55,921 nt of DNA from a virus (Duplodnaviria > Heunggongvirae > Uroviricota > Caudoviricetes), in IMG/VR virus record IMGVR_UViG_2541047806_000003, positions 1 through 55,921 of that record, one strand, 5' to 3'. Positions 1-54,510 of this stretch are shown here, piece by piece (within the stretch, counting starts at the first letter, position 1; every line of letters begins with the position of its first letter). A program made the position numbers and the translations under genes. The notes under the pieces were generated by a model, which worked only from the letters and a program-made list of their open reading frames with translations, did not search any database and was not told where the DNA came from.

Positions 1-1446
1 ATGAGTATGTCATCCATACCGTCGTCCTCCCAATCCGGGAAGCTCTATGGCTGGGTCGAAAGAATTGGTAACAAGGTGCCCCATCCTTTTTTGCTCTTTA
101 TCTATTTGATTATCGTACTCATGGTGACGACAGCAATTTTGTCGGCCTTTGGCGTCAGTGCGAAAAACCCGACCGATGGTACGCCGGTGGTCGTGAAAAA
201 CCTGCTCAGTGTGGAAGTATTACACTGGTTTTTACCCAATGTTATTAAAAACTTTAGCGGTTTTGCTCCACTTGGAGCGATCCTGGCGCTGGTTTTAGGT
301 GCCGGTCTGGCGGAGCGCGTCGGCTTACTGCCAGCGTTGATGGTTAAAATGGCATCGCATGTGAATGCCCGCTACGCCAGTTATATGGTGCTGTTTATTG
401 CTTTTTTTAGCCACATTTCTTCCGATGCGGCGTTAGTGATCATGCCACCGATGGGTGCGCTGATTTTTCTGGCGGTGGGCAGGCATCCAGTTGCAGGTTT
501 ACTGGCCGCCATTGCAGGCGTAGGTTGCGGCTTTACGGCTAATTTACTGATTGTCACAACCGACGTGTTGCTGTCGGGGATCAGCACGGAGGCTGCGGCT
601 GCGTTCAATCCGCAAATGCACGTCAGTGTAATTGATAACTGGTATTTTATGGCCAGCTCCGTAGTCGTACTGACGATTGTTGGCGGCCTGATAACCGACA
701 AAATCATTGAGCCACGTTTAGGTCAATGGCAGGGAAACAGCGATGAGAAACTGCAGACATTAACCGAAAGTCAGCGTTTTGGTTTACGCATAGCAGGTGT
801 CGTATCGCTACTTTTTATTGCTGCGATTGCGCTGATGGTGATCCCGGAAAACGGGATATTGCGCGATCCGATTAATCACACCGTGATGCCATCCCCCTTT
901 ATTAAAGGTATCGTGCCACTGATCATTCTTTTTTTCTTTGTGGTCTCGCTGGCTTATGGCATCGCTACCCGCACAATTCGACGTCAGGCGGATTTACCGC
1001 ATTTAATGATTGAACCGATGAAAGAGATGGCGGGATTTATCGTGATGGTTTTTCCCCTCGCCCAGTTTGTCGCCATGTTTAACTGGAGCAACATGGGGAA
1101 ATTCATCGCCGTGGGGCTGACCGATATACTGGAAAGTTCAGGGCTTAGCGGCATCCCGGCGTTTGTCGGTCTGGCGTTGCTTTCCTCTTTCTTATGCATG
1201 TTTATCGCCAGCGGTTCCGCAATCTGGTCGATTCTGGCCCCCATTTTCGTACCGATGTTTATGCTACTTGGCTTTCACCCGGCATTTGCGCAAATCCTCT
1301 TTCGTATTGCCGACTCATCCGTATTGCCTTTAGCGCCGGTATCTCCTTTTGTTCCACTGTTTCTTGGATTCCTGCAACGTTACAAACCAGACGCGAAACT
1401 GGGTACTTACTATTCGTTAGTTTTGCCCTATCCACTTATCTTTTGA
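1..1446 (+). CDS. abgT: AbgT-family (p-aminobenzoyl-glutamate) transporter; ORF begins at window edge and appears C-terminally shortened at the prophage junction
   Basis: 481 aa polytopic membrane protein, N-terminus MSMSSIPSSSQSGKLYGWVERIGNKVPHPF recognised as AbgT-like; ORF stops at 1446 just before phage-end repeat and terminator. Confidence 0.7.
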   Translation: MSMSSIPSSSQSGKLYGWVERIGNKVPHPFLLFIYLIIVLMVTTAILSAFGVSAKNPTDGTPVVVKNLLSVEVLHWFLPNVIKNFSGFAPLGAILALVLGAGLAERVGLLPALMVKMASHVNARYASYMVLFIAFFSHISSDAALVIMPPMGALIFLAVGRHPVAGLLAAIAGVGCGFTANLLIVTTDVLLSGISTEAAAAFNPQMHVSVIDNWYFMASSVVVLTIVGGLITDKIIEPRLGQWQGNSDEKLQTLTESQRFGLRIAGVVSLLFIAAIALMVIPENGILRDPINHTVMPSPFIKGIVPLIILFFFVVSLAYGIATRTIRRQADLPHLMIEPMKEMAGFIVMVFPLAQFVAMFNWSNMGKFIAVGLTDILESSGLSGIPAFVGLALLSSFLCMFIASGSAIWSILAPIFVPMFMLLGFHPAFAQILFRIADSSVLPLAPVSPFVPLFLGFLQRYKPDAKLGTYYSLVLPYPLIF

Positions 1447-1513
1447 ATGGCTGGCTTAACGAAAAAATATTTTGTATTCAACATGTTATGTTTTGTTTTG
1501 TTTTTAATTTACC

Positions 1514-1537
1514 AATTTGGTCGCAATTTGGTACACA
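1514..1537. repeat. Left copy of 24-bp prophage-end repeat AATTTGGTCGCAATTTGGTACACA (candidate integrase arm-type/att site)
   Basis: 22/24 identical to 55886-55909 immediately upstream of integrase start; contains AATTTGGT sub-repeats. Confidence 0.45.
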
Positions 1538-1564
1538 AAAAAGAAACGAGGCGTTAGCCTCGTT
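1536..1564 (-). terminator. Rho-independent terminator ending the late (tail) operon
   Basis: 8-bp GC-rich stem AACGAGGC/GCCTCGTT with loop GTTA, followed on minus strand by TCTTTTTTGTGT. Confidence 0.6.
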
Positions 1565-1611
1565 TCGCGCGGCGATGTTTTCAACATCACCATGCTATCA
1601 CTGCCGCATCA

Positions 1612-1896
1612 TTAAGCCCATGCGCGGACGCCTGGATCTGGAACAATGAAAGGCTCAAGCTGAGAAATATCAACATCGTCACCAGTTATACGCACGTTGA
1701 CGTAATAACCTTTTTTCCCAATAAGTACAGGTGTCTCGCTTTCTGGATCGTCGAATACAAGGACAAAACCGATATCATCAATAAACACGGTTGACCAATT
1801 GGCATCCAGCAAGCCGCTATTAATCACAATGTCGTTGTATTGCTGTTTGTCAGTAAATTGCAAGCTAACGTCTTTCATGTTAACCACCTTAAACAA
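1612..1896 (-). CDS. Hypothetical protein downstream of tail fibre (possible fibre assembly/accessory protein)
   Basis: 94 aa ORF, start overlaps stop of tail-fibre gene (translational coupling); last gene before terminator. Confidence 0.45.
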   Translation of the reverse strand: MFKVVNMKDVSLQFTDKQQYNDIVINSGLLDANWSTVFIDDIGFVLVFDDPESETPVLIGKKGYYVNVRITGDDVDISQLEPFIVPDPGVRAWA

Positions 1897-4140: not shown

Positions 4141-4167
4141 AAAAACGGGGCTTATGCCCCGTTTTTT
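4141..4167. terminator. Bidirectional rho-independent terminator
   Basis: Stem AACGGGGC/GCCCCGTT, loop TTAT, A-run upstream and T-run downstream. Confidence 0.6.
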
Positions 4168-7100
4168 ATGCTGTCGTTGATGTTCTAAATGATCCGGTGC
4201 CTCTTGCTACTATCATTGTTGGAGAATACAACGCGGTACAATATGCGTATCCTTCAGATGATGATGTTTGAGGACAATATATTTTCCCGATAATATCTGA
4301 TGCTTTTAAACCAGAAAAAGCGCATTGCACTGTTAATGTGCATCCACCATAAGGCACGTAATATGAAATTGTTTTGTTTTTATCTCCGCAACTAAACGTT
4401 ACGTTATAAGTGGATCTATATTCACCAGACATTAATGAAATAGTCGCCATAAGCATAACTGATTTCGTCAATGCATTATCCGTGCTGTCTTTATATGTGA
4501 TGGTTGCGCTATAACTTCCGTTATGCCCAAGCACTCGATCTGGACCAACCCCCATGTTAGCAACGTCACCGACAAATGACTTTGCCTCTACTGTACCTTT
4601 AAACTTCCCGCTTGTGGCCTGAATCTCACCAGTGAATTTACCAGATGTTGCGTACACCGTACCGCGTACAGTGACGTTGTTGAACTCCGCATTGCCGTTT
4701 TTATTTAGCATCCAGCCAGCCGAACCAGCTTTATAGTTGGTTGACTGAATTTGCTGCGCAATCTTCGCGGTAGTGATTGATGCGTCTCTGATCCACGCAT
4801 CACGGATGTAGCAAGCACCGTTAGTAACATAGAACGGGGTCTGATAGGAGCCACCTGCCGCAGTCATAAGCACGAAACGGTCAACGAGGAAAATACACTG
4901 CGATTGAACGTTAGTCCCGCTACCAGTAAGGCCGAGCGACATTCCTGTAGCGTATTTCATACCGTTTTTATCAGTGGCAATCTTAATTGAATATGACGCA
5001 TCAACGTTACCTTTGAAGTCAGTCAGTGCTTTTGATGTCGTTTCTATCGCCGTTGTGTTTCCGTTAATAGTTACTTTCAACTGGTCGATTCTGGTTGACA
5101 ATGCCTCGTCTGCCGTTGCCATAGCCTGTGACCATTCCGTGATGCTTGAGTTTACATCGTCGAAAGATGCCGAGATCTGGCCAAATTTTTCCGCGCTTGA
5201 TGTTTCATGCGTAGAAAGTGCAGTTGACACTTCGGATACTTTCGAATTAATCGTACTGGTAAGCGATGAGTTAAGGCTGCTGATTGCGTCAGTGCGTGCA
5301 TTCTTCTCATCTGCGATCGCTTTATCCATCCTGGTTACGTTGCTTGTCACCTTGCTATCGAGCGTGGAAATTGACGCATTAACCCCGCTAATAGCTTCTG
5401 CGCGTGCGCTCGCCTCATCTGCGATTGCTTTATCAAGACGGGAAACGCTCGCGTCGGTTTTGCTTTCAAGACTACTGACGCTGGCGTTAACGTTGCTAAT
5501 AGCTTCTGCGCGTGCGCTCGCCTCATCTGCGATTGCTGTGTCTACCCTTGCTATTTCCGCTTTTGTTTTTGTTTGTCCTTTCCTGTATTTCGCCTCAATA
5601 ACAGTGCTCATCTTGCTTTGCGCCATTGAGTTATTAATAAGCGCCAGAGATGCGTTTTGCAGACTTGCTTTCGCCTGATCTATCTCGTCGCTGTTTTTAT
5701 CAACCTCACTTTTAACGCCGCCAAGCGTCGCGCTGATACCTGATATCGCCTGAGCACGTGCGCTTGATTCATCAGCGATAGCTTGATCAAGACGGCTAAC
5801 ACTGGCATTTGTGTTATTTTCAAGCGTTGTTAAATCAGCTTTAACCACTGTTATTGCGTCGCTTCTTGCCTGCGTTTCATCTGATATTGCATTATCGAGG
5901 CGCTTAACGCTGGCGTCAGTTTTCTTGTCAAGTGTTGAGATACTTGCGTTCACGTCGCTGATAGCCTGAGTACGCGCACTTGTTTCGTCTGCAATTGCCT
6001 GATCAAGACGGTTTACGCTGGCGTCAGTTTTCTTGTCAAGATTGCTTATTGAGGCATTTACACCGTTAATAGCTTCAGCGCGGGCGCTGGCCTCGTCAGC
6101 TACTGCGCGTTGCACATTAGAGATCTGACCTTTAAGGTTTGTGTCCATCACATTCATTTCTGCCGTGATGGTTTCCAGTGATTCCGCTGTCGCTTTTTTC
6201 TCTTCAGCGATAACGTTGTCAATGCGGTCAATTTCCGCTTTCGTCTCTGTCCTGCCTTTCTTGTACTGAGCGGTAAGAGTTACGCGAGTGTTAGTCTGTG
6301 CAAGCGAGTTATTAATAAGAGCAAGTGAGGCGTTTTGCAGACTTGCTTTTGCTTGCGCCAGTTCGCTGCCAACTTTTTCGCTAGACACCTCCAGCGAGTC
6401 GATTCTCGACTCATGCTGTCCAATATCATCGGCGTTTTCCTTAACTTTTTTATAAAGATCTTCCGTTTCTTTTTTGAGCGTATCAGTATCAGCTTTTATT
6501 GATCCTGTTTCTATGGTTAGGTTGTCAGTTTCAGTCCTTAAATCGTCAGTTATGTTGGTCAGATTATCAGTTGCAGTTTTGAGGTTGTCAGTAGCAGTTT
6601 TAAGGTCATTCGTAGCGCTTTCGATAAGATCAGTGCGGTCGCCTAGATCTTTAATGTCACCAACCATTTCTTTAAATTGTTTGGAATTCATTACGTCTTT
6701 GGTGACGTAATCGGTAATTTCATCAAAGTTTTCTGTTGGCTTACCTGACGCTTCCACAAAGTCAGACACACCAAAAGCGTTACGCGCGCGCACATAAACG
6801 TAATATGTGTGACCTGTATTCATGCCGCCAAACGTCCACTGATGACCACGCCCAGTATATTGTGCTTTAGTGGTTATTGATGCCGGATCAGTGATCTGCG
6901 TTTCACCTGAGTAATAAAACTCGTAACTGGTATCAGTGGTGAGCGTTGTTCTGCTGATCGGGTAAACTGTAGCCTGGAATACACCGGGAACCCAATTAAC
7001 GCCAACTGGGGCCGCTGGTGCGCCAATAACCAGATCGACAATGCTTTCCGCACCCTTCATGCCCGTGTCATTTCTGCCACGAATGCCTAATGAGTAGTTG

Positions 7101-9136
7101 CCAGCATCAATGCCATAAAAATCATAACTGTAATTCGTGGTTTCGTAGCTTTTAACTACAGCGCCTTCGGCGTTATACACGCGAATCTCAAAGGTCAGGC
7201 GACGCGTTGTCGTCTGTGTTTCCCATGTTGCGCGACATTGAACCGTTTCAGATCCAACGTTTAACACCTTCAGATTTTCAATGTTCGGCACGCGGAAGTG
7301 ATTAAGCGTGTCGTTATTGATCTCGAAGATTGCGCCATTATCGACTACGGCCTGCTTATGTGGATCATGCTGTGCGGCCTCGATGGTGTATACGCTGTTA
7401 TTTTCTGTTTCTGCTACACTGGTGATTCGACATAAAACGGGTTTTGCTGCGTTGGTTGATACAGCAAAAACAGTGCCGTTACGAATCCACGCCGGGGCGG
7501 CTGCAAGGGTGATAATGTTCCCGTTAACTCCGATGATCTGGTGTTTTTTAAATTTACCATCGCTATCAAGTAAGCTGATGGTGTCGCCAGCCGCGATATA
7601 TTCAGAATCAACCTTGTCGACCGTGATCGCTCTGCCATTGTTCGCCACGATGCGACCGCCTAAACGAGCGCCTGCGCGATTATTATCGAGGATCTCGATT
7701 ATATCCCCCGGCGTAAAGTGAATGGCGTCACGGGCCATTTTAAATGTGAATTTTGACGGCTCGCGTTTCGCTGTTTCGATCAGCCATTTACCAGCGCGGT
7801 GCGCTTGCCCGCGTGAAGTGCAACCGAACGCCTCCAACGTGGTTTCGTTATAACCATCACGGGCGATTAGTTTATCATCTGCGACATATTCTTTTGATTG
7901 CTCCCAGCCGTTTTCAGGGTCAGTCCAGGATACGATCACGGCGTTGTAGCATTCTGCGCGTGCGATACTTGAACGAGTAAACGCGCCATCAACGACGTTT
8001 GCATTTGTGATGGTGGCGATTGGATCTTGTGGCGCATCAATCATCACGGTAAGACGTTGTCCGTCCCATAACGCGATACCACGGAACATACCTGCGATGT
8101 TGTCCAGTAGGTCGCGGGCGCTCATTTGCTCCGTAATGTAAGCGTTAAGCGTCATGCGAGGTTCAAGGCCACCATAGCCATCATCAACCAACTGATCGCA
8201 GTATTGAGAAAGCACGTACAAAGCGCCATCATCAACATCAATGTAACCAGCATGTCGAGCAAGTCCAAAGCGCTCGTTTTTAACCAGATACCGGAAAAGC
8301 CATGCAGGGTTATTGGTATACGCCTTTTTAAATCCACCAAGCCATAAACCTGAATATGTGCGCGTTTCAGGGTTGTAGTTGTCAGGCACATCAACAATCA
8401 GGCCGCGAAGGTGATAGGTGCGGGTAGGCGTATCAGTATACTGATCATGGTCAATTACGGCGCCAGCTACAGCGGTATGAGGATAAGACAGATTATCATC
8501 TATTATTTCGCTGTAACTACTCCACCGCGTATCATTCCGCAATAGATCGCCGTTGCTGTCTGGTGTTATGCGACGAACGCGAATATCAAACGGTTTTTCA
8601 TCCGGCGCTTTAATGATGTGAGCTTCCAGGTATTCACCGCTTTGTTTACCAGGGCCAATGTGTATGTCTTTAATCAGCGACCACGTAGAAGATGATGACG
8701 GTTTAACATCAACCATCAACATGACGGATGTATTATATTGATTGCCCTTTTCATCTGACTGAACGAGAGCATCAACACCAAGATTCAACCTGACGCGGGT
8801 AACGTTTGGATCTGAAACAGTCCTGATTATTGGTGTGTCGTGAGTTACCTTTGCGTTGACAATAACGGTTGACTCAATGGCGTTAAAACCATTAATCGGC
8901 GATTGGTCAGCCGTGCCGTTGCGCCAGGCTATACTAATCCCCGGAATTGATGTATTCCCGTTTGCGTCAGTAACAGGAGTGTCATTAAGCATCACGTCAT
9001 TCAATGGCGCTTTCTGGTTTACCGGACCGTATATCGGCCCTTCGCTGAGAATATCTAAAACACGATAAAACTGTTTGTGATACAGGTTATCGTTCAATAA
9101 TGTTGGTGTTTTGGCTTTGCCGCCGCCGCTACTCAT
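4166..9136 (-). CDS. Host-specificity / central tail fibre protein (lambda J-like) with long coiled-coil repeat extension
   Basis: 1656 aa; N-terminal two thirds resemble lambda gpJ (e.g. YSGLWLGGFKKAYTNNPAWLFRYL); residues about 920-1400 are heptad-like repeats (DASVSRLDKAIADEASARAEAISGVNASIS...). Confidence 0.85.
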   Translation of the reverse strand: MSSGGGKAKTPTLLNDNLYHKQFYRVLDILSEGPIYGPVNQKAPLNDVMLNDTPVTDANGNTSIPGISIAWRNGTADQSPINGFNAIESTVIVNAKVTHDTPIIRTVSDPNVTRVRLNLGVDALVQSDEKGNQYNTSVMLMVDVKPSSSSTWSLIKDIHIGPGKQSGEYLEAHIIKAPDEKPFDIRVRRITPDSNGDLLRNDTRWSSYSEIIDDNLSYPHTAVAGAVIDHDQYTDTPTRTYHLRGLIVDVPDNYNPETRTYSGLWLGGFKKAYTNNPAWLFRYLVKNERFGLARHAGYIDVDDGALYVLSQYCDQLVDDGYGGLEPRMTLNAYITEQMSARDLLDNIAGMFRGIALWDGQRLTVMIDAPQDPIATITNANVVDGAFTRSSIARAECYNAVIVSWTDPENGWEQSKEYVADDKLIARDGYNETTLEAFGCTSRGQAHRAGKWLIETAKREPSKFTFKMARDAIHFTPGDIIEILDNNRAGARLGGRIVANNGRAITVDKVDSEYIAAGDTISLLDSDGKFKKHQIIGVNGNIITLAAAPAWIRNGTVFAVSTNAAKPVLCRITSVAETENNSVYTIEAAQHDPHKQAVVDNGAIFEINNDTLNHFRVPNIENLKVLNVGSETVQCRATWETQTTTRRLTFEIRVYNAEGAVVKSYETTNYSYDFYGIDAGNYSLGIRGRNDTGMKGAESIVDLVIGAPAAPVGVNWVPGVFQATVYPISRTTLTTDTSYEFYYSGETQITDPASITTKAQYTGRGHQWTFGGMNTGHTYYVYVRARNAFGVSDFVEASGKPTENFDEITDYVTKDVMNSKQFKEMVGDIKDLGDRTDLIESATNDLKTATDNLKTATDNLTNITDDLRTETDNLTIETGSIKADTDTLKKETEDLYKKVKENADDIGQHESRIDSLEVSSEKVGSELAQAKASLQNASLALINNSLAQTNTRVTLTAQYKKGRTETKAEIDRIDNVIAEEKKATAESLETITAEMNVMDTNLKGQISNVQRAVADEASARAEAINGVNASISNLDKKTDASVNRLDQAIADETSARTQAISDVNASISTLDKKTDASVKRLDNAISDETQARSDAITVVKADLTTLENNTNASVSRLDQAIADESSARAQAISGISATLGGVKSEVDKNSDEIDQAKASLQNASLALINNSMAQSKMSTVIEAKYRKGQTKTKAEIARVDTAIADEASARAEAISNVNASVSSLESKTDASVSRLDKAIADEASARAEAISGVNASISTLDSKVTSNVTRMDKAIADEKNARTDAISSLNSSLTSTINSKVSEVSTALSTHETSSAEKFGQISASFDDVNSSITEWSQAMATADEALSTRIDQLKVTINGNTTAIETTSKALTDFKGNVDASYSIKIATDKNGMKYATGMSLGLTGSGTNVQSQCIFLVDRFVLMTAAGGSYQTPFYVTNGACYIRDAWIRDASITTAKIAQQIQSTNYKAGSAGWMLNKNGNAEFNNVTVRGTVYATSGKFTGEIQATSGKFKGTVEAKSFVGDVANMGVGPDRVLGHNGSYSATITYKDSTDNALTKSVMLMATISLMSGEYRSTYNVTFSCGDKNKTISYYVPYGGCTLTVQCAFSGLKASDIIGKIYCPQTSSSEGYAYCTALYSPTMIVARGTGSFRTSTTA
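4940..6380. repeat. Intragenic tandem repeat region within J-like gene
   Basis: Exact 41-bp repeat TAATAGCTTCTGCGCGTGCGCTCGCCTCATCTGCGATTGCT at 5388-5428 and 5507-5547 plus many degenerate copies encoding the coiled coil. Confidence 0.6.
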
Positions 9137-21480: not shown

Positions 21481-22785
21481 TTAGAAATAAGTGTTAAAGT
21501 CAGGGACTTCGCCTTTTTTGTCTTCACTTGCTGTGTTGGCGGCTAGCGGAGTTGCTTTACCCAGGGATTTAAACATTGCCTCTAATGCTTCACCGCTTAA
21601 TGCGTTAGCAACAATTTCGCCGTGAACTTTTGCTACTGCGGCGCGTTTTTCTGCTACTTCTTTATTTGCGTTTGCTGCAATTTCTTCTTTAATTGCTTTC
21701 TGGTTGGTCTGTAATTCTTCTTGGTTGGTCTGCAATTCTTCTACGCTTGCCTGTACTGGTTTTAATGCCTCTGCTACTGCATTAGCGATATTGGCGGCTA
21801 AGCCTTCGTTAATTTCTTTTACCAGTTCGGCGCGTTCTTCTTTTGTCAAAGGCATGGGATCGTCCTCCGATTTATTGGCCTTAATTTTTTCATTCAGGGA
21901 GAAAAGATTAGACAGGTGTTCAGCGAACTGAGCGAACCATGATTTACTTTCCTCATTGGTTGCAAGTTCGCCATTATTGAGAATAATTTTATCAGCCTGT
22001 TTTTCATATGCGCAAACTTGAGCACTTTCGGTATTAGTGGCAATCGTCACTTCTTTATCAGTGAAGTCCACAACATACACGTAATCGGCATCAGGAAATA
22101 ATTCACGCGCCGCGTCGGTTAATTGTTTCTCAAGCGTACGGTAACTGTTTTCTTTCATTGCCACCGCCATTAACGGTTTCGCCTGGTCAGTATTAACCAT
22201 CAACCCTACACCCTGTTCAGGTGATGCGGCTGGCGGCTCATGCAGCAAAATAGCGTCATGGTCGATCGACATAATTTTTACTACATGGTCAGCGCCCTGG
22301 GCTTTCATCTCTTCAGTAGCTGGCATACGCTGACGATATACAGCGACGGACGACCAGATAGGATCTTTGCTTTCTCCTTTCTCCAGTGCTTCCAGTCGGG
22401 TTAATAATTCGCGCCCCTGTTCTGAATGGCTGGCTGTTTCAATATCCACCCATTTTTCCACATAAACACGATTGCCGCGTAATTCAACGTTTCTGTTCCA
22501 CGCTCCACAAAACCCGGTGTTCAATCCTTCCGGGCTAAATGCGGAAACAAATTTACCGTCAACGGTAGGATGGCCTAACGGTGCAAGCGTCCCCTCCAGT
22601 GACTGGTAATTAGCGATAATTTCAGCTTCTGGGTAATACTCACGATTCATAACGATATTGAATGGCAGCGTATATGATGGCACAACAATGTGCTCGCGTC
22701 CGTTATAAGTTTCCCGGCGTATGGTATTAGCGGTTAATTTGGTATTAACCTGAATCAATTCTTTACTCACGGTTTTTACTCCCAA
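21481..22785 (-). CDS. Prohead protease / scaffolding protein (fusion type)
   Basis: 434 aa, C-terminal coiled coil with EELQTNQEELQTNQ repeat; position between head morphogenesis and decoration genes. Confidence 0.5.
   Translation of the reverse strand: MGVKTVSKELIQVNTKLTANTIRRETYNGREHIVVPSYTLPFNIVMNREYYPEAEIIANYQSLEGTLAPLGHPTVDGKFVSAFSPEGLNTGFCGAWNRNVELRGNRVYVEKWVDIETASHSEQGRELLTRLEALEKGESKDPIWSSVAVYRQRMPATEEMKAQGADHVVKIMSIDHDAILLHEPPAASPEQGVGLMVNTDQAKPLMAVAMKENSYRTLEKQLTDAARELFPDADYVYVVDFTDKEVTIATNTESAQVCAYEKQADKIILNNGELATNEESKSWFAQFAEHLSNLFSLNEKIKANKSEDDPMPLTKEERAELVKEINEGLAANIANAVAEALKPVQASVEELQTNQEELQTNQKAIKEEIAANANKEVAEKRAAVAKVHGEIVANALSGEALEAMFKSLGKATPLAANTASEDKKGEVPDFNTYF
21700..21741. 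repeat. 21-bp tandem direct repeat (2 copies) inside scaffold gene
   Basis: CTGGTTGGTCTGTAATTCTTC / TTGGTTGGTCTGCAATTCTTC. Confidence 0.6.
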
Positions 22786-53853: not shown

Positions 53854-54510
53854 ATGAGTGAATCAAAAGCAATCGGTGTGATTAGCCATCGCACTAACCC
53901 TGAATGCTACCCATCGTTTGAAGTATCGACATGCAGGGAAGAATATAATTTTGGATCATGTTATTTGGTTGGTGTTCGCGCTGATCGCGACACTTATTCT
54001 GTTATGGCGGCAAGCTGGAAGTTTGATAAATATGCCAATTTATCTAATAAAGATGATGATGGCATGAATAAAGAAAGTGAAATCATTAACGAATTAATCG
54101 AAGATGAGCGGCATGATTGCGATACGCCAGAAGTTACGGAATGGATGGCAGGAGAAAAGCCTCCATGCGGAGTATGGCTTGAGCTTCTAGATCCTGTCGA
54201 TGGTCGGAAATATGTTATTCTGAAATACAAGTATATAAGTGATCGCCTTGCTCTTTTTGTAGAAATGGATGCGCCTGATTTTGAACAAGCCGGGGAATGG
54301 AAGCATTTCGCTCATAAGTTGTATGTAGATCCGAAAGAAAAAACACTGGCTGAAATTGCGTTTGCACTTGCTACTAAGGTTATCGGCGAAGATGCTGCAA
54401 AAGAAATTGATTTTAACCGCGACAACGAATTTTCGTGCGATTATCGCAATATGGCGCAAGCTATTATAGACGGATGTATAGGACACGTTGAATATACGGG
54501 TGGTGAATAA
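53854..54510 (+). CDS. Hypothetical protein
   Basis: 218 aa from ATG 53854 (SD GAGGA). Confidence 0.45.
   Translation: MSESKAIGVISHRTNPECYPSFEVSTCREEYNFGSCYLVGVRADRDTYSVMAASWKFDKYANLSNKDDDGMNKESEIINELIEDERHDCDTPEVTEWMAGEKPPCGVWLELLDPVDGRKYVILKYKYISDRLALFVEMDAPDFEQAGEWKHFAHKLYVDPKEKTLAEIAFALATKVIGEDAAKEIDFNRDNEFSCDYRNMAQAIIDGCIGHVEYTGGE

Follow-up and report, generated by a model that had tools for sequence, protein, structure and literature searches.

The window analysed here (the whole stretch of 55,921 nucleotides) begins in a shortened abgT gene of the host, E. coli, and ends at a phage integrase gene, and a 24-bp sequence that lies shortly after the first recurs directly upstream of the second. 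This raises the question of where exactly phage and host DNA meet and of what the repeat is: the crossover site itself, a set of binding sites or a similarity without function. The comparisons described below make it very probable that positions 1–1610 are the attL of a mEpimmI (mEp021-like) prophage of about 54.6 kb in abgT and that the repeats are most likely arm sites of the integrase (Int). The features on which the argument draws are listed in Table 1.

Table 1. Features at the two ends of the window, with the observations on which each assignment is based.
Feature	Position	Strand	Basis and remarks
abgT, cut by the prophage	1..1446	+	ORF list; codes for the first 481 of 508 residues
NarL I site of the host ogt promoter, TACTTACTATTCGTTA	1404..1419	+	sequence read; PMC7419079 Supplementary Fig. 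S3
att core, attL form TATCCACTTATCTTTT	1429..1444	+	end of abgT homology; comparison of attB, attR and attP
P' arm, phage DNA from core to tail-operon terminator	1445..1542	.	collinear with MagusPhagus post-core sequence and 11 distinct relatives
IHF-like site ATTCAACATGTTA, weak candidate	1476..1488	+	consensus scan of attP; 1 mismatch from WATCAANNNNTTR
Left copy of the 24-bp repeat, P' arm tandem element, 11-bp units AATTTGGTCGC + AATTTGGTACACA	1514..1537	+	repeat search
Terminator of the leftward tail-fibre operon	1543..1566	-	terminator scan; 10-bp stem, then T-run
Last phage gene before attL, 88 aa, function unassigned	1612..1878	-	ORF; phrog_1361, E = 2e-27
72-aa ORF, candidate excision/directionality factor	54510..54728	+	convergent with int, overlaps int 3' end by 43 bp
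Tyrosine integrase (int), 399 aa, arm-binding, central and catalytic domains	54686..55885	-	Pfam, phrog_1
Possible third P-arm unit AATTTGGTA	55866..55874	+	inside int codons 4-7 (T-K-L)
Right copy of the 24-bp repeat, P arm tandem element, units AATTTGGTCAC + TATTTGGTACACA	55886..55909	+	abuts int start codon

The junction in abgT and the attachment core

A preliminary description of the window had noted an abgT-like open reading frame that stops at 1446 and seems short, and had read this as the left junction of a prophage integrated into the 3' end of the gene. Both points are borne out. The product matches the Pfam family ABG_transport over profile positions 1–476 of 502, and the uninterrupted abgT of strain Z226-1 measures 1527 bp and encodes 508 aa compared with the 481 aa found here, so that this intact homolog does not end at the same residue but continues for another 27. 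When the window was compared with the uninterrupted abgT locus, the match broke off at 1444 (n = 4191 genomes with at least 80% of the query matched), and the attR of relatives and the attP of free phages, described below, agree with integration at this place. The phage DNA to the right of the core starts with GA, so that the junction reads TTT TGA and AbgT ends at residue 481, with a TGA stop codon that is supplied by the phage directly after the core. The AbgT of the window is without its last hydrophobic segment, the 27-aa tail LVVWLLMLLAWYLVGLPIGPGIYPRLS. Lysogens with the truncated AbgT are common; 224 blocks in the assembly collection contain the exact truncated protein, the same gene is annotated by PGAP as a pseudogene ('incomplete; missing C-terminus') in 5 lysogens, and L029 is identical to the window across 1400–1600. 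Matches of 63 bp in pseudogenes annotated as 'AbgT family transporter' (H26–H30) were considered as duplications of the att site and rejected; these belong to B2-type strains in which the abg operon has been replaced and just a 144-bp 3' remnant is left.

Reading attB in the intact abgT-ogt locus of an uninterrupted genome and comparing it with attP yields a common core of 16 bp, TATCC(A/G)CTTATCTTTT, which has an A in the host and a G in the phage at position 1434. The 10 bp that follow (1435–1444) are identical in the host and in all phages examined and are for this reason the probable strand-exchange region; moreover, GN04592 carries the A in its attL core and the G in its attR core, which places the exchange to the right of position 1434. 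Strand exchange would thus most likely take place within CTTATCTTTT. An imperfect inverted repeat around the core of MagusPhagus (TTATCC ... GGATAA) was set aside, the P' arm of the window having GGCTGGC instead. As a separate observation, core positions 1437–1444 coincide with the first (left) half of NarL site II in the promoter of the host gene ogt (PMC7419079 Fig. S3).

The right host flank had been placed outside the window, in agreement with the finding that the core occurs just once in the 55.9 kb, at 1429–1444. In GN04592 and MLI107, attR consists of the core, a 27-codon abgT remnant and then ogt-fnr-uspE, and six contigs that encode an identical 411-aa Int likewise show attR core, abgT remnant and ogt beyond the integrase end, one of the six matching the last 1500 nt of the window exactly. 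Judging from these contigs, the attR core of the window would lie about 110 bp past its right edge, with the 27-codon abgT remnant and then ogt behind it, and the right flank is predicted to read TATCCGCTTATCTTTT, then TGGTGGTATGG..., then ogt.

In the free phage MagusPhagus the predicted attP is contiguous and runs in the order int, P arm, core, P' arm, terminator and tail genes, with the 24-bp element in both arms, and the record ends of mEp013, when joined, give the same order. This arrangement bears on the reading that takes the 24-bp repeat for the att core, as the direct repeat that marks the true prophage ends. Att cores do look like this, as a near-identical direct repeat found just at the two prophage ends, but host abgT homology stops 70 bp short of the repeat, at 1444, and the repeat (AATTTGGTC...ACACA) is absent from intact abgT-ogt. 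At attR, the junction with the abgT remnant is at TATCCGCTTATCTTTT, which lies some 122 bp rightward of the repeat, and the free phage holds both copies, one on each side of the core. The end of homology at 1444 together with the free-phage attP refutes the repeat as a crossover site, leaving this reading with a probability close to nil; the repeat forms no part of the true core at 1429–1444.

On the phage side of the core, the P' arm leads up to the terminator of the tail-fibre operon, and the first bases of the terminator T-run abut the P' arm element. The terminator is invariant among relatives at 23 of its 24 positions, and the same hairpin is annotated in mEp013. The 88-aa gene beyond it sits downstream of a 598-aa tail fibre gene, and an equivalent CDS is called by PGAP in GN04592.

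The repeat in the two attachment arms

The recurrence of the 24-bp sequence upstream of int, with 22 of 24 positions matching, was reproduced: 1514–1537 reads AATTTGGTCGCAATTTGGTACACA and 55886–55909 reads AATTTGGTCACTATTTGGTACACA, both on the + strand. A search with the 24-bp pattern, in which the 3 middle bases were left free and up to 3 mismatches were allowed, returned just these 2 places in 55.9 kb and no match in 100 dinucleotide-preserving shuffles. The extra short copies reported earlier are present as well, since AATTTGGTM is found at 1514, 1525, 22736, 55866 and 55886 (5 copies versus 1.68 expected), and a further unit, TATTTGGTA, starts at 55897. One might take the repeat for a remnant without function or for a similarity that arose by chance in AT-rich DNA between genes, given that AATTTGGTM on its own is about 3-fold enriched, that 5 of the 100 shuffles reach 5 copies of it and that the lambda-like octamer discussed next is at chance level. 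Against this stand the complete absence of the full 24-bp pattern from the shuffles and the fact that all relatives examined have retained the element at both places, even phages with unalignable arms and an identity of about 68% in the int region, and such an origin is accordingly very improbable.

The right copy had also been described as reminiscent of lambda-type arm sites on account of the octamer GTCACTAT. The octamer is indeed there, at 55892–55899, but it occurs at chance frequency (2 copies in the window versus 1.31 expected) and is not found in the left copy, which reads GTCGCAAT at this place. Furthermore, the positions that vary among relatives fall within the octamer, and TTTGGT is invariant. 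The lambda-specific arm consensus (C/AAGTCACTAT) was rejected because GTCACTAT is at chance level and confined to the right copy and because the N-terminal domain of the integrase matched Arm-DNA-bind_3 only. The more guarded suggestion that the repeats could be arm sites fared better, as they sit in the P and P' arms, away from the 16-bp core.

More precisely, in the P' arm the left copy is located 70–93 bp from the core; the right copy, in the P arm, is about 122–145 bp away from that of attR. Counting the first core base as 0, the starting points of TTTGGT are +87 and +98 for the P' arm; for the P arm they are -143 and -132, and a possible further unit starts at -163. All TTTGGT units in the reconstructed attP share one orientation. 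The possible third unit is degenerate in mEp021 (AATTTCGTA) and hence may just reflect the conserved coding sequence of MLTDTKLR. The reconstructed attP contains in addition ACGAT(A/G) repeats in the part of the P arm that lies outside the window, as well as a sole IHF-like match, which carries a mismatch and in which ATTCAA and TTA prove conserved when the P' arms are aligned.

The right copy is identical in GN04592, MLI107 and MagusPhagus, and mEp013, mEp021 and LSU61 also have the element upstream of int. The position of the left copy, abutting the terminator, is the same in type I prophages and mEp021 and occurs as a variant in type III LSU61, which has a variant unit with 12-bp spacing in both its arms. 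Both TTTGGT cores are without variation in the 11 distinct P' arms of type II that were compared; over its whole length, the element is just moderately better conserved within type II phages than the neighbouring spacer (19 of 24 invariant columns versus 43 of 70). In relatives that target ydaM or mppA, the element is kept beside int and beside the terminator, while the cores and the other arm sequence differ.

The integrase and its presumed contacts

Int has Pfam matches to Arm-DNA-bind_3 (E = 1.9e-19, residues 2–87), Phage_int_M and Phage_integrase (3.3e-17), and its columns R240, H332, R335, H358 and Y367/Y370 are invariant among 4 integrases. An in-frame ATG further upstream, at the window edge (55921), gives the 411-aa form of the protein; in relatives PGAP places the int start at the position equivalent to 55885, and the start annotated at 55921 probably lies 36 nt too far upstream. 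At the amino acid level, Int is 92% identical to that of mEp013 and 50% identical to those of type I (mEp021) and type III (LSU61). Identity between the types amounts to 65–67% in the arm-binding domain, 34–41% in the central domain and 47–52% in the catalytic domain.

The repeats are probably arm-type Int sites because TTTGGT units are kept in both arms of relatives with other cores, because the N-terminal domain is of the Arm-DNA-bind_3 family and because the arm-binding domain is better conserved than the central one; on the strength of this comparison, Int probably binds the TTTGGT repeats. In the mechanism that we propose, the tyrosine integrase would recombine the phage attP with attB inside the abgT 3' end by means of the shared 16-bp core, its N-terminal domain binding the tandem TTTGGT arm elements and its central and catalytic domains binding the core, and Int would thereby link the arms to the core, as happens in intasomes of the lambda type. 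IHF or the 72-aa ORF next to int may also have a role in recombination. The product of this ORF is 45% identical to mEp021_02, which is annotated as 'helix-turn-helix domain-containing protein', and it matches phrog_4745 ('DNA binding protein', E = 4e-4) in PHROGs; a comparison with Pfam returned nothing at E <= 0.01 and just Phage_AlpA at E = 0.2, and a single-sequence AlphaFold2 model was unusable (pLDDT 52). As an excision/directionality factor it is a weak candidate.

Lying directly at the start codon of int, the P copy could serve the regulation of int besides, or in place of, intasome assembly. Carried to its end, this would make the repeats operator-like sites of a regulator, be it Int in autoregulation, the 72-aa HTH protein or some other protein of the phage, and not arm sites. 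No Shine-Dalgarno sequence is visible before the int ATG, where the P copy directly adjoins, scans for sigma-70 promoters gave no hit in 1300–2000 or in the attP region of MagusPhagus, and a small HTH-like ORF is at hand beside int. However, the second copy is situated about 230 bp from int, beyond the core and beside the terminator, which is a poor place for an int operator, and the integrase possesses a dedicated arm-binding domain with which the conservation of the element across integrase types keeps pace. The 72-aa ORF, for its part, has diverged to 45% identity, and the P arm has separate type-specific repeats. An operator instead of arm sites is thus unlikely, although the two roles are not mutually exclusive.

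The arm-site reading invites comparison with lambda, whose attP comprises the arm sites P1, P2 and P'1-3 and a 15-bp core, with IHF and Xis as accessory proteins. Common to lambda and the window phage are a heterobivalent tyrosine integrase with a tyrosine-recombinase catalytic domain and a separate N-terminal arm-binding domain, direct-repeat arm sites on both sides of a short core (here putative ones, at about -160 to -125 and +87 to +106) and the identity of this short core in attP and attB. In both attP arms of the window phage, the repeats are unrelated to the core and lie about 100 bp or more from it. Unlike in lambda, the N-terminal domain is Arm-DNA-bind_3 (PF13356), with no other arm-binding family reported, the motif is based on TTTGGT, the 5' end of int faces attP, and attB is not intergenic but falls within a coding gene as well as a promoter. 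The same three-domain architecture is found in integrases of the P4/CP4-57 type, and the N-terminal domain of the window Int is detectably similar in sequence to solved N-terminal domains (PDB 3JTZ and 3JU0; E about 5e-7). Integrases of this type typically target tRNA or tmRNA genes, whereas the target here is the 3' end of a transporter gene. Phage 21/e14 likewise integrates site-specifically into the 3' part of the coding sequence of a host protein gene, icd; phage 21, however, brings a substitute 3' end with which icd stays functional, while the window phage supplies just a stop codon and AbgT loses 27 residues.

The mEpimmI phages and the host ogt promoter

Integration at the 3' end of abgT by type II mEpimmI integrases was published in 2025 (Front Microbiol 2025;16:1480411, PMC11893012) and is already known for this group, so that the prophage junction as such is ordinary. 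The study names GN04592, MLI107, UMNK88, RM9245 and mEp010/013/044 in the type II abgT-integrating set; its experimental att validation concerned mEp021 at ydaM, not abgT, and its text makes no mention of attP, arm-type repeats, excisionase, ogt or NarL. The window Int is a member of the type II cluster (mEp010, mEp013, mEp044), and, as in type II phages, the prophage is inserted towards the 3' terminus of abgT and has ogt beyond its other end (attR from related contigs). The searches returned the lysogens GN04592, MLI107, UMNK88, RM9245, 09-00049, E21845, 190 and 127, as in PMC11893012, and nucleotide identity of int to mEp010, mEp013, mEp044 and MagusPhagus is 89–94%. The prophage of the window is itself not among the genomes listed in PMC11893012, and its best int match in a complete genome is 95.8%. 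As a whole, the prophage is collinear with mEp010, 013, 044, 021, 515, 554 and MagusPhagus (65–81% coverage, 85–88% identity), and the 'cI repressor' and Q-like features lie under regions matched to mEp021-group phages. What the present analysis adds is an att map at base level, with the core at 1429–1444, the likely exchange within CTTATCTTTT and TTTGGT elements in both arms. The element and the Int N-terminal domain remain conserved, whereas the cores, together with the core-binding domains, change with the target (ydaM, abgT or mppA), which would represent a natural, modular retargeting of integrases.

The insertion site is also of possible consequence for the neighbouring host gene, as it falls within an ogt promoter that has been mapped by experiment. 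NarL I lies within the abgT coding sequence and stays at attL, about 55 kb from ogt, and because the core overlaps NarL site II, insertion parts ogt from the essential NarL I site. According to PMC7419079, nitrate induction is lost when this site carries point mutations. It is possible, if rather doubtful at present, that lysogeny removes NarL I and the overlapping Fis site from ogt with the loss of both nitrate/NarL induction and Fis repression, and that Int and NarL compete. If this is true, Ogt (O6-alkylguanine-DNA alkyltransferase) would be without nitrate/NarL induction and without Fis repression in lysogens, and Int might face competition from NarL bound to attB or attR, which would couple integration or excision to nitrate respiration. 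Lysogens are accordingly predicted to be without NarL I-dependent ogt induction and without full-length AbgT.

Integration site and att core

Window position 1 is the abgT start codon. When positions 1-1700 were compared by megablast with 5426 complete E. coli genomes, the match began at 1 and broke off after 1444 in 4191 of them. On the basis of a comparison of attB, attL and attR (Table), the att core is placed at a 16-bp sequence, 1429-1444, which occurs once in the window. The main interpretation of the preliminary description, integration into the 3' end of abgT, is supported by this junction and by attR in relatives, and the right host flank does, as it stated, lie beyond the window: the true attR is located about 110 bp outside, as read in six contigs with the exact integrase, where the core begins 110 bp past the window end and an abgT remnant comes next (one of the six is identical to the window's last 1500 nt). 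The public assembly collection has 73 blocks with exactly the 411-aa int product encoded in the window, and int adjoins ogt-fnr-uspE in 6/6 of the places listed among them.

The abgT-like ORF was likewise correctly described as ending at 1446, shorter than full length, since uninterrupted abgT of strain Z226-1 has 1527 bp (508 aa), with ogt 10 bp further on. The 27 residues absent, LVVWLLMLLAWYLVGLPIGPGIYPRLS, are hydrophobic and, by inspection, probably membrane-spanning. With a G as the first phage base past the core, the attL junction reads ATC TTT TGA, and the phage contributes to abgT only the stop codon; in five such lysogens the PGAP label is 'incomplete; missing C-terminus'. The exact truncated AbgT is found in 224 blocks of the assembly collection, gut metagenome scaffolds among them, which together with the 73 blocks containing the exact integrase argues that the lysogenic state is common; scaffold KE700461.1 (GCA_000458475.1) matches the window without a difference across 1400-1600. 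Some strains (E. coli C8, L004 5001-5146, and the 'AbgT family transporter' pseudogenes H26-H30) lack abgA, abgB and abgT, having an AraC/HlyD/MFS cluster instead, and retain a 144-bp abgT 3' remnant with the ogt promoter and the attB core; this phage should therefore still be able to target them.

In the int region, identity is 93.8% to Escherichia phage MagusPhagus and 88-89% to mEp013, mEp010 and mEp044. The MagusPhagus attP is contiguous, running from the int start through AATTTGGTCACTATTTGGTACACA, about 120 bp, TATCCGCTTATCTTTT, GAATGG..., ATTTTGGTCACTATTTGGTACACA and the terminator to the tail fibre gene, exactly as if the right end of the window were connected to its sequence from 1445 on; connecting the ends of the mEp013 record gives the same arrangement. 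Position 1434 is G in the phage core and A in many hosts; in GN04592 the equivalent base is A at attL and G at attR, and the exchange therefore occurred to the right of 1434. On its left side the mEp013 core has further differences (TACCTACTTATCTTTT), so that all partners share without change only CTTATCTTTT (1435-1444), within which we infer the overlap region to lie.

Collinearity of the prophage with mEp010, 013, 044, 021, 515, 554 and MagusPhagus extends over 65-81% of the prophage length, with 85-88% identity. This group has been defined as mEpimmI (PMC11893012, Front Microbiol 2025) in a study listing mEp010, 013 and 044 and prophages GN04592, GN05505, MLI107, UMNK88, RM9245, 09-0049, E21845, 190 and 127, essentially the genomes found by similarity here. 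As that study reports type II integrases acting at the 3' end of abgT, the integration site is not new; its PCR validation concerned mEp021 at ydaM. The window junction is a routine prophage junction of an already published kind, and what is added here is limited to a base-level att map and the division of the ogt promoter by the insertion. The text of PMC11893012 makes no mention of attP or its arm-type sites, of direct repeats or an excisionase, or of ogt, NarL and the overlap of the core with the ogt promoter.

Features at the prophage ends and in related loci
Feature	Position	Strand	Details
abgT ORF, shortened	1-1446		481 aa; Pfam ABG_transport, profile positions 1-476 of 502
NarL I	1404-1419		window coordinates
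NarL II, first 8 bp	1437-1444		right half of att core
attB	intact abgT		...GCCC TATCCACTTATCTTTT TGGTGGTATGG...
attL	window		...GCCC TATCCACTTATCTTTT GAATGGCTGG...
attR	lysogens GN04592, MLI107		...AATGGCGT TATCCGCTTATCTTTT TGGTGGTATGG..., then abgT remnant, ogt, fnr, uspE
IHF-like match	1476-1488		one mismatch; consensus match only
24-bp element, left copy	1514-1537		AATTTGGTCGCAATTTGGTACACA
24-bp element, right copy	55886-55909	same as left	AATTTGGTCACTATTTGGTACACA
Terminator	1543-1566	-	perfect 10-bp hairpin and T-run; ends leftward tail-fibre operon; abuts P' element
Last phage ORF	1612-1878		88 aa; phrog_1361
72-aa ORF	54510-54728	+	convergent with int; 43-bp overlap of int 3' end
Integrase	54686-55885	-	399 aa; Arm-DNA-bind_3, Phage_int_M, Phage_integrase domains
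LSU61 variant arm units	L010 1480-1507; L011 7776-7802

Separation of NarL I from ogt

Elements of the experimentally mapped ogt promoter have been marked inside the abgT 3' end (PMC7419079, Supplementary Fig. S3), with NarL I as TACTTACTATTCGTTA, NarL II as TATCTTTTTGGTGGTA (one T fewer in the machine-read text) and the extended -10 as TGGTATCTT. NarL II, the -35, the -10 and ogt are regenerated at attR (L023, reverse strand; L001 5332-5440; about 110-200 bp past the window end), and the essential NarL I stays at attL with a reported overlapping Fis site, about 55 kb from ogt. By inspection, nothing resembling a NarL 7-2-7 sequence is present at the corresponding place in the phage P arm. Because induction 'was lost' upon point mutation of NarL I (PMC7419079) and integration parts NarL I from ogt, lysogens are predicted to lose nitrate induction of ogt.

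Arm elements and the integrase

The 24-bp sequence does recur at the right end exactly where the preliminary description placed it, with 22/24 matches. With its three central bases left free, the pattern has no third place in the window and appears in 0 of 100 shuffles, and ATTTGGTACACA with up to two mismatches has no place in the window besides the two copies. The further short copies are also borne out, AATTTGGTM being present at 1514, 1525, 55866 and 55886, as well as at 22736 (5 found, 1.68 expected). The repeat was rejected as crossover or core, as it sits in the arms and the host match ends at 1444; what stands of its proposed att role is an element in both arms of attP. The likeness of the right copy to lambda-type arm sites did not hold, since the octamer GTCACTAT shows no excess over chance frequency in the window and conservation of the element does not centre on it.

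Counted from the core's first base in the reconstructed attP, the P arm (int side) has TTTGGT-containing units starting at -163, -143 and -132, and the P' arm (terminator side) has them at +87 and +98, in one orientation throughout and with 11-bp spacing inside each tandem. Across 11 distinct P' arms of type II (the integrase type of mEp010, 013, 044 and the window) both hexamers are invariant, as are 19/24 columns of the element versus 43/70 of the spacer separating it from the core. Since the unit at 55866 falls in int codons 4-7 and is degenerate in mEp021, its presence may result from the coding sequence.

A stronger argument for arm sites than this type II conservation comes from relatives of other specificity. 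mEp021 (type I), MS 21-1 and STEC308 integrate at ydaM and have unrelated cores and largely unalignable arms, and TTTGGTC(A/T)C(T/A/G)ATTTGGTACACA is kept in them beside the int ATG and beside the tail-operon terminator. LSU61 (E. coli O157:H7; type III), integrated at mppA, carries the variant arm units TTTGGCGCACAATATGGTACACA and ATATGGTACACATAATGGTGCACA; its ATGGTRCAC units are spaced 12 bp in both arms, in contrast to 11 bp in types I and II, and its arms have changed together within one phage. For the window integrase against those of mEp021 and LSU61, identity in the arm-binding domain is 65-67%; it drops to 34-41% centrally (core-binding domain) and stands at 47-52% for the catalytic domain. 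A conserved element with a conserved arm-binding domain, and switched cores with diverged core-binding domains, are what arm-type sites predict, and this sequence pattern points to the 24-bp element as putative Int-binding arm-type sites. The Int N-domain matches solved N-domains of P4/CP4-like integrases.

The window ends at an upstream in-frame ATG (55921) that gives a 411-aa Int starting MHKMCVPNSDQIM. The ATG at 55885 (399 aa, MLTDTKLR...) is favoured by PGAP, by homologues and by where the Pfam domain starts. Neither start (55885, 55921) is preceded by a visible Shine-Dalgarno sequence, whereas AGGTG precedes the int start of mEp021.

Candidate directionality elements and tail genes

The P arm beyond the window (L001 5223-5331, L005 4023-4131) contains two pairs of ACGAT(A/G) repeats, one at -89/-79 and one at -36/-26 relative to the core, with a distance of 10 bp inside each pair. 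In the same place the repeats differ in mEp021, which has GAACGGAT twice, and in LSU61, which has TTTACGC; such repeats may be bound by a type-specific directionality factor. The 72-aa ORF, with 45% identity to the mEp021 HTH protein mEp021_02 and weak AlpA and DNA-binding matches, is a candidate excisionase; its AlphaFold2 model is too poor to use.

The last phage genes include, with the 88-aa ORF, a 598-aa tail fibre protein. In the J-like tail tip protein (4166-9136, minus strand, 1656 aa), a long run of near-repeats of DASVSRLDQAIADE(A/T)SARAEAISGVNASIS looks like a coiled-coil-like repeat module.
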